DNA of 64,000 nucleotides from a virus. Position 1 is the stretch's first letter; each line of letters begins with the position of its first letter. The stretch lies in the IMG/VR virus record IMGVR_UViG_3300028654_000015, positions 1 to 64,000 of that record; one strand, 5' to 3'. Positions 1 through 5,012 of this stretch are shown piece by piece. The notes beneath the pieces are model-generated. The model was not told the origin of the DNA and searched no databases. It was given only the letters and a program-made list of their open reading frames with translations. The position numbers and the translations under genes are program-made.

Positions 1-107
1 TAGGTCTTATTGTAATGTTGTCTTTCATAGTGATCATTACACTGCTTGCAGTAGCACCAATAGCATTAACGATTGCATTTTTGATTCATTTTCTACCATA
101 ATGTGAT

Positions 108-374
108 ATGAAACATAACTATGAGATTAGAATACTACCTAATGAAATTCTAATACAATATAGAGAAGTTGATGATATACTAAACCCATTGAAATTTCGA
201 CCTATTCAGGAATGGTTATTGACTCATTTTTCTACTTTAAAAGATATTTTATATCAAGTATTAGAATTTGAAGATGGTGTGTTCAACCACGACATGATAG
301 AAGTAATAACGGTCAATAATACTAGATATGCACTTAAGCAATATATTAGAAATCATGGTAATAGTTGGTTATGA
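108..374 (+). CDS. YGNxW-family paralog 1 (unknown function)
   Basis: TLKDILY helix motif and C-terminal YIRNHGNSW shared with 10 neighbouring ORFs. Confidence 0.8.
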   Translation: MKHNYEIRILPNEILIQYREVDDILNPLKFRPIQEWLLTHFSTLKDILYQVLEFEDGVFNHDMIEVITVNNTRYALKQYIRNHGNSWL

Positions 375-652
375 GTGATATTATAATATATCTAAATGCT
401 AATGTGTTTCCTGGAAGACTAGATATTCTAGATATTACTGTAAAGTATGGTAATAATATAGATGAATTAACATATCTGACCGAATGGCCAGAAGAACTAC
501 CAACCACACCAAAAGATCTTTTGTATCATTTATATAATACTATTCCTGGGTTTAATGTTGATGACATCAAACTTCATTGGACACACAGTCATATCATAGT
601 AACAATGAAACAGCATATACAATTACATGGTAATAAATGGATTGTACTATGA
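371..652 (+). CDS. YGNxW-family paralog 2
   Basis: TPKDLLY ... HIQLHGNKW; start placed at the ATGA overlap (track start 365 is TTG). Confidence 0.8.
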   Translation: MSDIIIYLNANVFPGRLDILDITVKYGNNIDELTYLTEWPEELPTTPKDLLYHLYNTIPGFNVDDIKLHWTHSHIIVTMKQHIQLHGNKWIVL

Positions 653-849
653 TCAATCAAAAGGTACGATTGTATTGTGTACAATGTGATAAGAAAAAAC
701 TATGTCGTGTTTTAGATGATCCTGCTAGATTTCATGCTGGATATGTTTTTGTGAAAATTGAATGTGAGTCATGTGGAATACGAGGTAAAATAACTACAGA
801 ACAATTAGAAGAAAAAGAAGAACACTGGAACCAAATACAATCGATATAG
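637..849 (+). CDS. small Zn-ribbon-like protein
   Basis: CVQC ... CESC pairs; start could be 649. Confidence 0.6.
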   Translation: MDCTMINQKVRLYCVQCDKKKLCRVLDDPARFHAGYVFVKIECESCGIRGKITTEQLEEKEEHWNQIQSI

Positions 850-851
850 TT

Positions 852-1130
852 ATGGATTTTATTATTGAAATATTTCACCACAAAACTCCTGTCCCAGGGA
901 GATCAGAAATTGAGATATTTGTATTGCAAAAAGAAGAGCATGATAACGACTATCATACTATTACAACTATAGATAGTGAAAAAATAACTCTTATGGAATT
1001 ATTATATCAAATTAGAGATACTTACAATGAACGATTTGTATTAGAGAATATTATTATGAACTTAAGATACCAAAGCATTAAATTATCTTTAGTTGAATAT
1101 GTTAGATTATATGGCAATAAGTGGATATGA
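852..1130 (+). CDS. YGNxW-family paralog 3
   Basis: TLMELLY ... YVRLYGNKW. Confidence 0.8.
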   Translation: MDFIIEIFHHKTPVPGRSEIEIFVLQKEEHDNDYHTITTIDSEKITLMELLYQIRDTYNERFVLENIIMNLRYQSIKLSLVEYVRLYGNKWI

Positions 1131-1393
1131 AATTTTCTATCAGAATACAACGAACACAAATAGAAGTGGTGTGGTGTATCAACAAGGTTCCTATGCATTC
1201 TTTTTTCCTAAGAAATTCTACATTAAAAGAGATTTTATATAGAATGAAAGATAAAATTAGAAACGATTATGACTTTAAAGATTTTGTGATACTTGTTGAA
1301 AATTGGGAAATACAACACAAAATTTCAACATCTTCAATAGCAGTAGTCCCATTAGATGATTACATAAAACAATTTGGAAATACATGGGTTTAA
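1127..1393 (+). CDS. YGNxW-family paralog 4
   Basis: TLKEILY ... YIKQFGNTW; ATGA overlap start. Confidence 0.8.
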   Translation: MKFSIRIQRTQIEVVWCINKVPMHSFFLRNSTLKEILYRMKDKIRNDYDFKDFVILVENWEIQHKISTSSIAVVPLDDYIKQFGNTWV

Positions 1394-1461
1394 CAGTTAT
1401 ACATTTATCTCGATATATGCTATTATATAGATAGCAGATTTTATTAATTTATGGATATTTT

Positions 1462-1596
1462 ATGACACACGATTTACTTATTATAGTTATTTTTGGAGTA
1501 CTTAGTTATATTTGGAGCAGGTCACTTATTGAATTTTTTGGATACTTTTTTGTTTTGAATTTACTCTTATATCTTGTTGAAAGAGTTATTCTTTAA
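1462..1596 (+). CDS. 44-aa hydrophobic membrane peptide (not in ORF track)
   Basis: Own translation MTHDLLIIVIFGVLSYIWSRSLIEFFGYFFVLNLLLYLVERVIL; fills the gap. Confidence 0.5.
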   Translation: MTHDLLIIVIFGVLSYIWSRSLIEFFGYFFVLNLLLYLVERVIL

Positions 1597-1620
1597 TATA
1601 GAAAATTCTCATTATATATT

Positions 1621-1908
1621 ATGCCTCAATATATTATGAATCGATATAGTATCGAAATAATTATATTCGATGATCACGTTTTAAATATTAGTGACGCAAC
1701 TATACGAGCATATGATAATTTTTGTACACATAAGATATTAGAAGTTGATCGGTATAGACATACTCTTAAAGATATATTATATGCATTAAGATTTCAATGT
1801 CCCTCATTTGAGGTAAATAATATTTTTGTACAAGTGCCAGAAAAGGGACAATTTGCACTACGTGAATATATTAGATTATATGGAAACGAGTGGCCTATAA
1901 TTATATAA
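1621..1908 (+). CDS. YGNxW-family paralog 5
   Basis: TLKDILY ... YIRLYGNEW. Confidence 0.8.
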   Translation: MPQYIMNRYSIEIIIFDDHVLNISDATIRAYDNFCTHKILEVDRYRHTLKDILYALRFQCPSFEVNNIFVQVPEKGQFALREYIRLYGNEWPIII

Positions 1909-2189
1909 TAAAAATACATCATACTATTGAAGATGTTGAAATTGGCATGACTTATCTTGGTGGAACATATGGTGATGTCTATGAATGTATTTCTGTTATA
2001 AGTAGAAAAGATATTACATTTAAAAATTTACTATACCATATCAAAGATATATTTAAAAAAGATATACCCAATTTTAAAATAGAACCAGAAGCATGGCAAG
2101 TTTATATAATAGAATTTGGTGCAACCACACCTTCAGCAGTATTTACATTAACACAATATGTAAAAAAGTATGGTAATCAGTGGATATAA
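1890..2189 (+). CDS. YGNxW-family paralog 6
   Basis: TFKNLLY ... YVKKYGNQW; GTG start overlaps the Trp codon of paralog 5. Confidence 0.8.
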   Translation: MAYNYIIKIHHTIEDVEIGMTYLGGTYGDVYECISVISRKDITFKNLLYHIKDIFKKDIPNFKIEPEAWQVYIIEFGATTPSAVFTLTQYVKKYGNQWI

Positions 2190-2366
2190 TCATACCCCTC
2201 GTACAAATAAAATGTAATAAACTACATAAAACCAACCAAAGAATCCATTTATTATCATCCAAAGAATATCATGATATGCTTGCCATGATATAAATCCTGC
2301 AACTAAGTTGCCTATCCCTATTGCGCCCAAACCAGTATTAAAATAAGTATTCATAAAAGTATCCAT
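2190..2366 (-). CDS. 58-aa membrane protein (not in ORF track)
   Basis: Own translation MDTFMNTYFNTGLGAIGIGNLVAGFISWQAYHDILWMIINGFFGWFYVVYYILFVRGV; last gene of the minus-strand cassette. Confidence 0.65.
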   Translation of the reverse strand: MDTFMNTYFNTGLGAIGIGNLVAGFISWQAYHDILWMIINGFFGWFYVVYYILFVRGV

Positions 2367-2383
2367 TATATTAAAGTTATTAT

Positions 2384-2620
2384 TTACGCGTGACTTTCTT
2401 CAAACATTTTTTCAGACCTAACTATATCATGTGCTTGTTGGTAAATATCATGACCTAAAGTAGCACCCAAAAATATTCTAAGCATAGAACTGGTGTAGTA
2501 AATAGCATCTGTGCTATTTGTTCTAAATGCTTCTAATATATTAGATTCGATGCATACCAATTGTTTTTGAGTCAATGATATGCCTTCCGGAAATTCTATT
2601 AGACCATATTCTGTTTTCAT
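2384..2620 (-). CDS. hypothetical protein
   Basis: ORF tiled in the minus-strand cassette. Confidence 0.6.
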   Translation of the reverse strand: MKTEYGLIEFPEGISLTQKQLVCIESNILEAFRTNSTDAIYYTSSMLRIFLGATLGHDIYQQAHDIVRSEKMFEESHA

Positions 2621-2621
2621 T

Positions 2622-2834
2622 TTATACCTTTTTTGCTACAATTCTTTTAATTTTATAATCTCTACCATCTTTCATCAGAAAAGATATAGCATTAATTCTA
2701 TTGGAATCACAATCGAAAAAATTTTGTTTTTCATGAAAATGTCCAAGTTGGGTATTAAGATCATTCATAATTGAAATATTGCCGTACTTATCGTGCAATA
2801 TGTTTAGTTTTTCTATTAGTGTGGAAATATTCAT
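2622..2834 (-). CDS. hypothetical protein
   Basis: ORF with AAGGA RBS, tiled in the cassette. Confidence 0.6.
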   Translation of the reverse strand: MNISTLIEKLNILHDKYGNISIMNDLNTQLGHFHEKQNFFDCDSNRINAISFLMKDGRDYKIKRIVAKKV

Positions 2835-2844
2835 TTTATTCCTT

Positions 2845-3033
2845 TTAAATTAAGTTATATGTTAGATTCTGTGTCAGTTCTTCTAAGAAATCTTTTGTGT
2901 ATGTGATATGATTTCTAACATATACCAGATCTTCAAAGTTTAAATTTGTATTGTTTCCAAGATTGAGAGAATCTATAGTCGATTCTACTGAATCAAGTTC
3001 GTCCATTAGTTGTCTTAGTTCTTTCGATATCAT
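2845..3033 (-). CDS. hypothetical helical protein
   Basis: TAAGGA RBS upstream; first gene of the minus-strand cassette. Confidence 0.6.
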   Translation of the reverse strand: MISKELRQLMDELDSVESTIDSLNLGNNTNLNFEDLVYVRNHITYTKDFLEELTQNLTYNLI

Positions 3034-3193
3034 AATTGTTCCTTATGTTTATAAAATATACATATATCATAACACTACTATATTTCCATGACATGACTAC
3101 AATCATGAAACACTAGATAGTGTTATTAATACCTTGATATTATTGATTATAATAGATAAGAAATATTCTTAGAGGATCTACTATGGTTAGTAA

Positions 3194-3222
3194 TTGACGA
3201 TAGTTTTTTGATTTGTTACACT
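3194..3222 (+). promoter_or_regulatory. sigma70-type promoter with extended -10
   Basis: TTGACG-N17-TACACT with TG upstream of -10, in the divergent intergenic gap. Confidence 0.6.
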
Positions 3223-3252
3223 TATACATTGTATATTTTGAATTATTAATGT

Positions 3253-3564
3253 ATGCCACTACCAATACATGTAGAAGTTATCATCAATGAATTATTAGAT
3301 TCGTTCAGAAAAACAGATATCATCACAGAAAGAACTGCAACAAATTGTATTAAATTATATTTCGAAAAAAGTAAATATCTAGATGATGGAAAATTATTAA
3401 ATAAATTGATGAAACTTATAGAAATAATAGAAAACAAATATCATTTAAAAAATGAAAATTTGCATGTGAGTTTAAATGGACCTTCTGTATTTTACAATAT
3501 GACAAAATATCAAAATTTGTTTGCTAAATCAAACTATCATGAAATAGAACTAAGTATTATATGA
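3253..3564 (+). CDS. hypothetical protein
   Basis: 103-aa ORF downstream of promoter, ATGA-coupled to next gene. Confidence 0.6.
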   Translation: MPLPIHVEVIINELLDSFRKTDIITERTATNCIKLYFEKSKYLDDGKLLNKLMKLIEIIENKYHLKNENLHVSLNGPSVFYNMTKYQNLFAKSNYHEIELSII

Positions 3565-3818
3565 CCTTTATAGATCAAAATAAATATACTATATGTCTTT
3601 CAATGGACCGAATAATATTTGTTACACATCACAGACCGCCAGCAGAGATGTTCTATAAATCAGACATATCTTTGAGGGATTTATTATATGGTCATAAAAG
3701 AAGATTAAAAACTACAATAGTACCAGATAACTGGAAAGTCATTATAGAAGATACAACAATAACAGTAGAACTAACATTACGAGAATATGTTCAAAGATAT
3801 GGCAATAGATGGATTTAA
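3561..3818 (+). CDS. YGNxW-family paralog 7
   Basis: SLRDLLY ... YVQRYGNRW. Confidence 0.8.
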   Translation: MTFIDQNKYTICLSMDRIIFVTHHRPPAEMFYKSDISLRDLLYGHKRRLKTTIVPDNWKVIIEDTTITVELTLREYVQRYGNRWI

Positions 3819-4144
3819 AAAATCTGATGACCTTTTCAAATATAATAAATCACAATCAAACTCTAGAAACAACAACTTTTCGATTAACTAGAAAAAGAGA
3901 CGATTGGATTGTTAAACTAGAATATTATGATGAAGCATTACAAGAATATAAAGAACTATTAGATATTTCAATAAACTCTATAACACTGAAAGATGCTCTG
4001 AAAAAGATTAAATATGTGTTTGAGTTGCCCCAGATACATCCAATGAATTGGATTATGGTATATCCATCTAAATTGGACGAAGAATGTGATGACGAGTTAG
4101 AATTACAATACTATGTAAAAAGATTTGGTAATACCTGGCAATGA
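3809..4144 (+). CDS. YGNxW-family paralog 8
   Basis: TLKDALK ... YVKRFGNTW. Confidence 0.8.
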   Translation: MDLKNLMTFSNIINHNQTLETTTFRLTRKRDDWIVKLEYYDEALQEYKELLDISINSITLKDALKKIKYVFELPQIHPMNWIMVYPSKLDEECDDELELQYYVKRFGNTWQ

Positions 4145-4413
4145 ATGTCATATTAATAGCACAACGAAAAACTTCAGTAAATGTATTCATTTGGATACCG
4201 TCAGCCGATCCTGCTCTTGAACCAGAGAAAGGTTATTGGACAAATCTATATACTCTGTTAGATAAAAATATAACATTAAAAGAAGTTCTTTATATGATAT
4301 ATAAAAATCCTGAAGTAAAATTTTTTGATATTACATCCATTACAGTAGGAGATGGACTGTCACAACTTAAATTAAAAGATTATATACAAATATATGGCAA
4401 TTCATGGCGTTAA
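4141..4413 (+). CDS. YGNxW-family paralog 9
   Basis: TLKEVLY ... YIQIYGNSW. Confidence 0.8.
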   Translation: MNVILIAQRKTSVNVFIWIPSADPALEPEKGYWTNLYTLLDKNITLKEVLYMIYKNPEVKFFDITSITVGDGLSQLKLKDYIQIYGNSWR

Positions 4414-4652
4414 CTAATTACATATACTCAATACATATTAAAGATTCTTATATACTAGTCGATCATATCGTTGATATCTATTATACAACTCTATGGCAAG
4501 AATCAAAATTGGTTAGTCTTAAAGATACCTTGTATAGAATAAAAAATCATAATCTAAATTACTTTAATTGGGAAACAATTTATCTAGTTAAAGACAAGAA
4601 TACATGGAATCTAAAAAGATATATCAAAGAATTCGGAAATACTTGGATATAA
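4404..4652 (+). CDS. YGNxW-family paralog 10
   Basis: SLKDTLY ... YIKEFGNTW. Confidence 0.8.
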   Translation: MALTNYIYSIHIKDSYILVDHIVDIYYTTLWQESKLVSLKDTLYRIKNHNLNYFNWETIYLVKDKNTWNLKRYIKEFGNTWI

Positions 4653-4703
4653 TTATACTTATTTGTTGAAAAGTATATATTACTATGATAAAGTATTAAA
4701 TTC

Positions 4704-5012
4704 ATGCGTAAACTCAAAGCAGAAATAGACCCGAAACAAACAAACTTCGAAATTTTTGTGAATACGTGGACTAATATAGGCGAAGTATATGCATCTTATT
4801 GTAACGTGGTACCAATATTTGAATTTGACACATCAGAGTGTGATTTAAAAACAGTTTTATATAATATAAAACAGAAAAATCAAGGATATATTCCTGTAGA
4901 TACCATTGTTTTACATATTGGTAATAATATGAATAGTAATAGATATCGAGTGAAAGATTATATAAAAAATTGGGGAAATATCTGGACCAGATTTCAAACA
5001 TATGGAAAATAA
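4704..5012 (+). CDS. YGNxW-family paralog 11
   Basis: DLKTVLY ... YIKNWGNIW. Confidence 0.8.
   Translation: MRKLKAEIDPKQTNFEIFVNTWTNIGEVYASYCNVVPIFEFDTSECDLKTVLYNIKQKNQGYIPVDTIVLHIGNNMNSNRYRVKDYIKNWGNIWTRFQTYGK

Follow-up and report, generated by a model that had tools for sequence, protein, structure and literature searches.

The left end of the 64,000-nucleotide stretch of viral DNA analysed here (the window) carries a run of small, weakly similar open reading frames that converge on a GNxW sequence near the C-terminus, raising the question of whether they constitute a genuine gene family and, if so, what a phage might gain by keeping so many copies of it. The 11 plus-strand ORFs of 82-111 aa listed in an earlier note exist as claimed, with starts at 108, 371, 852, 1127, 1621, 1890 (GTG), 3561, 3809, 4141, 4404 and 4704 confirmed both by the sequence and by independent public gene calls, which yield the same proteins (P0001-P0010 and P0023); the public call for ORF 3809 begins 6 codons further downstream. 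In leave-one-out comparisons, each of the 11 ORFs scored 23-48 bits against a hidden Markov model (HMM) of the other ten, and the non-family frames of at least 40 aa in the window all scored 7 bits or less with the full 11-copy HMM. These profile scores indicate that the window ORFs are true homologues, beyond motif matching.

The first gene (108..374; 88 aa, ending in HGNSWL; leave-one-out score 40.7 bits) shares an ATGA overlap with the second (371..652; 93 aa, HGNKWIVL; 28.2 bits), and the same arrangement joins the third (852..1130; 92 aa, YGNKWI; 47.9 bits) to the fourth (1127..1393; 88 aa, FGNTWV; 38.8 bits). The fifth gene (1621..1908; 95 aa, YGNEWPIII; 43.9 bits) contains, across its Trp codon, the GTG start of the sixth (1890..2189; 99 aa, YGNQWI; 44.6 bits). 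The array is then interrupted between 2190 and 3564 by non-family sequence scoring at most 3.3 bits with the family HMM and lacking a firm Pfam or PHROG match. Four small ORFs on the minus strand (2190-3033) come first, followed by 220 nt of intergenic sequence and a plus-strand ORF of 103 aa (3253-3564). The array resumes with a seventh gene (3561..3818; 85 aa, YGNRWI; 37.7 bits), whose Trp codon is spanned by the ATG of the eighth (3809..4144; 111 aa, FGNTWQ; a start at the ATG at 3827 would give 105 aa), the most divergent of the 11 (23.1 bits). The eighth gene shares an ATGA overlap with the ninth (4141..4413; 90 aa, YGNSWR; 35.7 bits), the ATG of the tenth (4404..4652; 82 aa, FGNTWI; 37.8 bits) again spans the Trp codon of its predecessor, and the last member (4704..5012; 102 aa, 44.1 bits) ends in WGNIW followed by an 8-residue tail. 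Many of the family genes are translationally coupled in these two ways, by an ATGA overlap or by a start codon that spans the conserved Trp codon of the gene before, so that whole sub-arrays are probably made together.

The array does not stop at the edge of the window. Directly upstream, a 6.6-kb metagenome contig (Ga0265322_10001903, hereafter L015) carries 14 further members at L015:2297-6266, recovered at 22-50 bits by an HMM trained on the 11 window copies only. Plus-strand positions 1..29 of the window match L015 6571-6599 at 100% identity, and one 113,894-bp public contig carries proteins of both L015 and the window, which places the two halves of the array on a contiguous sequence. The family thus totals at least 25 intact plus-strand genes, encoding proteins of 78-126 aa, over a span of 9,286 nt; taking at least three homologous small genes lying head to tail on one strand as the definition of such an array, the locus holds 25.

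The earlier note did not recognise the family, and HMM searches agree in matching it to no characterised family in Pfam, PHROGs or PDB sequences. Pfam and PHROG hits for all 25 members fell below cut-offs, with no family matched by more than one member, and the best match in the PDB-sequence profile search (E = 0.0076) was to an unrelated kinetochore protein. When the 11-copy profile was run against 1.84 billion protein representatives, all 19 matches came from this phage lineage, and word-based searches of 5.8 billion proteins, longer proteins included, returned the same lineage or nothing. Motif scans of IMG/VR identified no family member beyond the lineage, and tblastn against INPHARED identified none, Listeria matches at E = 0.3 being treated as chance. 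Whole-record searches of ten related viral records with the family profile detected no member, and the neighbourhoods in three of these ten held no comparable paralog array. The sole match among GTDB genomes was rejected as a 13-residue chance match without the Trp, located within a HAD-hydrolase gene of a bacterium, on the opposite strand. At a database-wide E of 0.001 the 11-sequence profile failed to recover 6 of the 14 members on L015, and it may equally have overlooked distant relatives in other phages.

The phage itself, a T4-like myophage, is uncultured and deep-branching, and its genome is estimated at about 180 kb (78,367 bases at 44% CheckV completeness). The nearest relatives of its large terminase are 45-53% identical, with 53% the maximum, which means that truly close relatives are absent from collections. 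The lineage is known from what is essentially a single sampling. As judged by the searches run, the array is a lineage-specific tandem multigene family without detectable relatives or known fold.

Divergence within the family is extensive. Pairwise identity among the 25 copies averages 25% (range 15-43%) and is unrelated to distance along the array (permutation p = 0.41). Twelve alignment columns are at least 70% conserved across the 25 copies (M1, I5, L33, K34, L37, Y38, F52, L68, Y71, G76, N77 and W79); nine of these positions are hydrophobic and located in predicted strands and helices, and 11 additional columns are at least 80% hydrophobic, spaced i/i+2 in strands and i/i+3/i+4/i+7 in helices. 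All other columns carry about 3 bits of entropy, close to random, and members differ widely in loop length, pI (5.0-9.4) and net charge (-5 to +5). The proposal of a fixed core with hypervariable surfaces is thereby borne out, in that a conserved, mostly hydrophobic core is set among near-random positions. The motifs proposed for the family hold less strictly. Among the 11 window sequences one L and the G, N and W never vary, and two Tyr positions reach at least 90% conservation, as had been claimed for GNxW and, in part, for a helix motif ending in L-Y; once all 25 copies are considered, the Trp alone is strictly invariant, with one FRNSW and one YGKKW, and three members lack the Tyr after the Leu. 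Each copy nonetheless finishes with [GR][NK]xW and 1-8 further residues. The 25 sequences show no obvious signal peptide or membrane-spanning stretch, and the family is read as one of small, soluble alpha/beta proteins.

A divergent, orphan array might simply consist of neutral leftovers of a past gene amplification, functionless today, and a family without assigned function that is confined to this lineage in the searches run is compatible with such an origin. The state of the genes makes this very improbable. None of the 25 frames is decayed, despite a stop-codon probability of 0.086 per codon at local composition, at which an open frame of 78 codons would arise by chance with a probability of about 0.001; core residues are kept with synonymous codon variation; near-identical recent duplicates are lacking among the 25 copies; and the strain variants seen differ by just 1-4 residues. 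The sequence record indicates that the copies are old and maintained.

The notion that GNxW is a by-product of the ribosome site or start codon of the next gene was also considered and rejected: the motif is kept in copies with no gene directly downstream, and its Gly codon varies synonymously across the 25 copies (GGC 9, GGA 7, GGT 7, GGG 1), which also contradicts this reading and shows that GNxW is conserved at the level of protein, not of DNA.

What the conserved residues do at that level is suggested by structure prediction. Two AlphaFold models, with pLDDT of 79 (m0b7ecf8f99ac, the 108..374 product, 78.8) and 83, have a common beta-beta-beta-alpha-beta-beta-alpha order, in line with the expectation that members share a fold. 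Neither outcome named in the earlier note as refuting it, models of differing fold or an HMM match to a characterised family, was thus observed. In these models GNxW is placed directly after the last helix, with a mean pLDDT of 84 over the last block. Helices are commonly capped by a Gly-Asn pair with an aromatic residue beyond it, and the simpler reading of the models is that Gly-Asn forms a helix C-cap, after which the Trp packs on the core. The conserved residues would then build the fold, with T/S-L-K-D as a helix N-cap box, L/Y/I as the buried face of helix 1, L/Y/I/aromatic residues as that of helix 2, and G-N as the C-cap turn from which the Trp folds back.

This bears directly on the earlier suggestion that the copies dock on a single common partner through GNxW. 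Confidently modelled after the last helix and belonging to a mostly hydrophobic conserved set, GNxW looks like a fold element and not a docking tag, and the suggestion is not upheld. In its broader form, the copies would be adaptors whose conserved patch (the K of TLKD with the N and W of GNxW) docks one host or phage protein while variable faces recruit cargos or substrates. K34 (88% conserved), N77 (96%) and W79 (100%) are indeed the most conserved residues that do not look like core, and if the two helices pack antiparallel, the start of helix 1 would, to judge from the models, neighbour the end of helix 2. The motif is, however, folded and no free tail, it has the appearance of the cap just described, two copies with an altered G or N are still intact, and no conserved candidate partner gene lies beside the array. 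We thus consider common-partner adaptors unlikely. What counts against a purely structural reading is that capping accounts only in part for the conserved polar residues K34 and N77, which might together make up a shared site.

Structural comparisons returned no clear relative. Foldseek searches of both models against the PDB, and a further search against BFVD, gave background-level matches only; VIA-align against 48,161 chains gave no convincing match for either model (Z at most 4.8); and a feature search of the ESM Atlas gave no usable match. The top weak matches, common to both AlphaFold models and an ESM Atlas model, were RNase H-like/ASKHA half-domains (RuvC, RuvX, the glucokinase N-lobe and the HIV RT connection domain), at Foldseek E values of 0.05-0.3, VIA Z scores of at most 4.8 and an ESM Atlas TM of about 0.5. 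The likeness lies in the beta-beta-beta-alpha start, whereas family strands 4 and 5 form a hairpin without the joining helix of RNase H-like folds. Nor is there any conserved D/E column of the kind expected for the acidic catalytic residues that RNase H-like nucleases (RuvC, RuvX, integrase) carry on strand 1, on strand 4 and on the helix after it, the best being D35, at 48%, in the helix-1 cap.

A second likeness is to the ubiquitin-like beta-grasp. UBX, PB1 and SUMO domains can be aligned with residues 10-80 of model 2, the alignments covering 57-68 residues (Z 3.5-4.3, not above background; rmsd 2.8-3.6 A), with a similar order of hairpin, helix and strands, but the family has an extra N-terminal strand and ends in a helix instead of a C-terminal strand. 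The C-terminal Gly-Gly of conjugatable ubiquitin-like proteins occurs in none of the 25 copies, which end in GNxW and its short extension. This resemblance, together with the fixed-ratio co-production that translational coupling would allow, would suit paralogs that self-associate through a conserved face into PB1- or ubiquitin-like homo- or hetero-oligomers, acting as mixed assemblies instead of singly. With the scores within the chance range for small alpha/beta folds and no sequence feature demanding oligomers, we rate self-association as quite improbable.

Genomic context provides some indication of when the proteins are made. Downstream of the array lie phosphoesterase, nucleotidyltransferase and dCMP deaminase genes, and no known anti-defence gene was identified among its neighbours. 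An embedded Zn-ribbon ORF gave a weak Lar-like PHROG match (E = 0.004) without Pfam confirmation, and scans of L015 identified neither a tRNA nor an Rfam family. The best sigma-70-like site on this contig (11/12 matches) ends 7 nt upstream of the first family gene, but promoter and terminator scans performed no better than on shuffled sequence. The T4-type late promoter TATAAATA occurs at five plus-strand sites between 13528 and 53194 of the window, each preceding late genes, and at none in the array. The earlier description of an early region stands insofar as this is a small-ORF region beside nucleotide-metabolism genes that is probably non-late; early timing itself is suggested mainly by the missing late promoters, since promoter-like sites are no commoner than in shuffles.

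The same promoter distribution weighs against a virion role. In T4-type phages the internal-protein loci are hypervariable and act against restriction, and small proteins so diverse in charge could conceivably form an equivalent polymorphic set, packaged in the head, delivered with the DNA and blocking restriction-type defences. The internal proteins of T4 (IPI, IPII and IPIII), however, start with a conserved capsid-targeting peptide that terminates in a prohead-protease site, and no conserved Glu-containing cleavage or targeting motif is found in the first 12 alignment columns of the family, which conserve only M1, a hydrophobic residue at position 3, I5 and I/L7, with more than 3 bits of entropy at polar positions. 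No PHROG virion family was consistently matched either. Packaged, injected proteins of this type are distinctly unlikely.

Together, these results favour a lineage-specific family in which the conserved core would fix the fold and the variable surfaces would carry the function; the copies would be produced before the late genes, each most likely binding a different host target in host takeover or counter-defence. Of the readings considered it is the one towards which we lean, at close to but short of even confidence. The copies are probably a set of host-targeting proteins, and a binder or anti-defence role is plausible. A bolder version, possible but doubtful, holds that the array is a repertoire built on one new small fold, in which each of the at least 25 copies neutralises a different host defence or housekeeping protein, as a scaffold-based inhibitor library that, if real, might underpin a broad or shifting host range. 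In a size-limited phage genome, the 7 kb of coding sequence given over to one orphan family (about 5% of the estimated genome) implies strong and varied selection, most plausibly from the host. Should the copies be target-specific binders, they would supply 25 naturally occurring versions of a single small scaffold with which to look for new host targets or inhibitors.

They would also offer a T4-type example of the multigene-family strategy of large eukaryotic DNA viruses, whose families the array resembles in organisation. The MGF110, MGF360 and MGF505 families of African swine fever virus (ASFV) and the host-range families of poxviruses consist of old, diverged but intact paralogs in tandem within variable regions, and are thought to diversify interactions with host defences. 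By analogy, the phage array is composed of tandem, old, diverged and intact paralogs in a variable genome region; unlike those families, to which it has no sequence or fold relation, it serves a virus of a bacterial host, its proteins are much smaller and their role is a proposed one. Among T4-like phages, a parallel is offered by hyperplastic regions, which PMC4122927 describes as variable regions of small genes between conserved core modules. Like these, the array consists of small, same-strand, tightly packed, lineage-specific ORFs between core modules. Hyperplastic regions as described are made up of many unrelated ORFans, whereas the present array consists of one family that has grown to at least 25 copies.

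All 11 ORFs that the earlier note described at window 108-5012 were found at the reported starts on the plus strand, and leave-one-out HMMs, each built from the other ten copies, assigned every one of them 23-48 bits, in agreement with their description as a single family. The full 11-copy HMM, applied to every window frame of at least 40 aa, gave no non-family frame more than 7 bits. When 1.84 billion representative proteins were searched with a profile of the 11 copies, only 19 matched: the window's own 11 proteins and 8 others, every one of which is listed for a 113,894-bp public contig on which the window's proteins also occur. Scanning metagenomes turned up a contig of 6,599 bp (Ga0265322_10001903, hereafter L015) that ends in 29 bases identical to window 1-29. 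This contig holds 14 further family ORFs at L015:2297-6266, immediately upstream of the window (22-50 bits each against an HMM of the 11 window copies only), among them variants ending in FRNSW and YGKKW and a 126-aa copy whose N-terminus bears a long extension. Window and contig combined, the array comprises 25 intact genes that account for 7,041 coding nt of a 9,286-nt span; it is more than twice the size first reported, and the window edge cuts through it.

The anatomy of the family was derived from an alignment of the 25 sequences, with columns numbered after the copy at L015:4023-4262. Conservation reaches 70% or more in twelve columns (M1, I5, L33, K34, L37, Y38, F52, L68, Y71, G76, N77 and W79), and 11 additional columns are at least 80% hydrophobic, with i/i+2 spacing in the predicted strands and i/i+3/i+4/i+7 spacing in the two helices. 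Nearly all remaining columns have an entropy of about 3 bits, as anticipated by the proposal of a fixed core with variable surfaces, and loops differ in length by up to about 25 residues among copies. The reported invariance of the near-C-terminal GNxW motif stands in part: L, G, N and W are invariant in the 11-copy alignment, but only the Trp is strictly so across all 25, with one FRNSW copy and one YGKKW copy as the exceptions to Gly-Asn. The motif Gly is encoded by a mixture of codons (GGC 9, GGA 7, GGT 7, GGG 1), so constraint acts at the protein level. The copies span pI values of 5.0-9.4 and net charges of -5 to +5, ruling out both acidic DNA mimics and basic nucleic-acid binders as a class.

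Pairwise identity averages 25% (range 15-43%), bears no relation to distance along the array (permutation p = 0.41) and does not differ between the two array halves. All copies are old, with neither recent duplicates nor pseudogenes among them, and the chance probability of a 78-codon open frame is about 0.001 at the array's base composition; that the genes are neutral relics is highly improbable. Self-association of the paralogs is also an unlikely reading.

AlphaFold2 models of window 108-371 (11-sequence alignment, pLDDT 78.8) and of L015:4023-4262 (25-sequence alignment, pLDDT 83.0) agree in the order of their secondary-structure elements, as expected of a shared fold: three strands come first, then a long helix, a two-strand hairpin and a short C-terminal helix, with GNxW after it. 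Mean pLDDT over the final block, where the motif lies, is 84, and this block is predicted to be folded rather than a free tail. The T/S-L-K-D motif at the start of helix 1 would take the form of an N-cap box and the Gly-Asn right after helix 2 that of a C-cap turn, while the Trp is probably positioned to pack back onto the core. The earlier note had taken GNxW as a docking motif through which all copies bind one common partner. With the motif block modelled as folded, its conservation can be explained without such a partner, and we consider this model doubtful. Should the copies share a functional site, K34 and N77 would be its likeliest residues.

Family genes are closely joined. ATGA overlaps occur at nine junctions, eight between family genes and one from ORF 3253 into gene 3561, and at another eight the next start codon overlaps the conserved Trp codon of the preceding family gene, either as ATG from nnA-TGG (ATG-G) or as GTG from GAG-TGG (GTG-G); these eight lie at window 3800-3811, 4395-4406, 1888-1892 and 635-639 and on L015. 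Together, the two arrangements suggest translational coupling, and they mark which unit was duplicated. Several elements that fall outside the family by HMM interrupt the array: a plus-strand Zn-ribbon-like ORF of 70 aa with two CxxC pairs (window 637-849), two small membrane-like ORFs, and a minus-strand cassette of four small ORFs (window 2190-3033). Small hydrophobic, membrane-like ORFs occur between sub-arrays at window 1-107, L015:6251-6502 and window 1462-1596, and gave no family matches. The Zn-ribbon ORF has a weak PHROG match, not borne out by Pfam, to a Lar-like restriction alleviation protein (E = 0.0042), and for cassette ORF 2622-2834 (minus strand) Pfam gives a match to TscT toxin that stays below threshold (E = 0.0029). 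Beyond the cassette, a 220-nt intergenic stretch (window 3034-3252) contains promoter-like sites in both directions.

The T4-type late promoter word TATAAATA was found by word scan at five plus-strand sites, each preceding late or structural genes (window 13528, 41258, 50953, 51797 and 53194), and nowhere within the array or on L015; that the array encodes packaged internal proteins seems improbable. Over the whole record the word is strongly under-represented (five on the plus strand and none on the minus, where base composition predicts about 18 on each). The genes downstream of the array encode a phosphoesterase, a nucleotidyltransferase and a dCMP deaminase. On L015, the best sigma-70-like site (TTGACC, 18 nt, TATAAT) stops 7 nt short of the first family gene, although such sites show no enrichment over shuffled sequence. 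It terminates the 218-nt intergenic leader of that gene (L015:2079-2296, plus strand), whose folding barely beats shuffles (z = -1.9). Also upstream of the array are a strong terminator-like hairpin (L015:873-908, plus strand; a 14-bp stem, then a T-run) between two 58-aa ORFs, and a 650-nt stretch (L015:1100-1753) with no plus-strand ORF of at least 50 aa, no tRNA, no Rfam match and a raised G+C content (0.39-0.43 versus about 0.28 in the array).

The IMG/VR virus record, of which the window covers 1-64000, is 78,367 bp long with an estimated completeness of 44%, and the phage has a G+C content of about 30%. Among its genes are those for T4-type baseplate wedge proteins, a tail sheath and a large terminase. 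No cultured phage has a terminase more than 53% identical to this one; the closest are those of the Pelagibacter myophages Mosig and HTVC008M, then cyanomyophages. Against IMG/VR contigs, terminase identity reaches at most 53% in a partial match and 49% over near-full-length matches. The gene set and this divergence mark the phage as an uncultured, deep-branching T4-like myophage, close relatives of which are absent from the collections searched. No family member was found in INPHARED, in IMG/VR beyond this lineage's own records, or in ten whole related viral records (the same method recovers 11/11 in the window's own record), and no comparable paralog array lies around the phosphoesterase homologue in any of the three contigs that were closest among nine viral contigs retrieved. 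GTDB genomes yielded no true member, their single match being a chance one within a bacterial gene. Because 6 of the 14 L015 copies scored below the database-wide threshold in the 1.84-billion-protein search with the 11-copy profile, the absence of remote relatives elsewhere is suggestive, not proven.

The evidence supports a multigene family that is ancient, maintained and specific to this lineage, its scaffold held fixed and its surfaces left free, in a region that is probably non-late. As the best functional reading, which we hold tentatively and at somewhat short of even odds, the copies would be made together as small proteins, each binding its own host target, with host takeover or counter-defence as the outcome.

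The family had not been recognised in the earlier note, and in Pfam and PHROG every match fell under the cut-offs, with none common to more than one member. A profile search of PDB sequences gave nothing meaningful, Foldseek found no match at E <=0.001 in PDB or BFVD, and the best Z of an exhaustive VIA-align search (4.7-4.8) lies under the typical best score for models without a true match. The weak fold matches are of two kinds: RNase H-like or ASKHA half-domains (residues 1-78), a theme repeated among ESM Atlas structural neighbours, and ubiquitin-like domains (UBX, PB1, SUMO; residues 10-80). The family can be assigned to neither. It has no conserved acidic catalytic residues and no C-terminal Gly-Gly. 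The protein family is new to every library searched, whereas the kind of object to which it belongs is already known, variable small-gene regions being described as a feature of T4-type genomes (PMC4122927).
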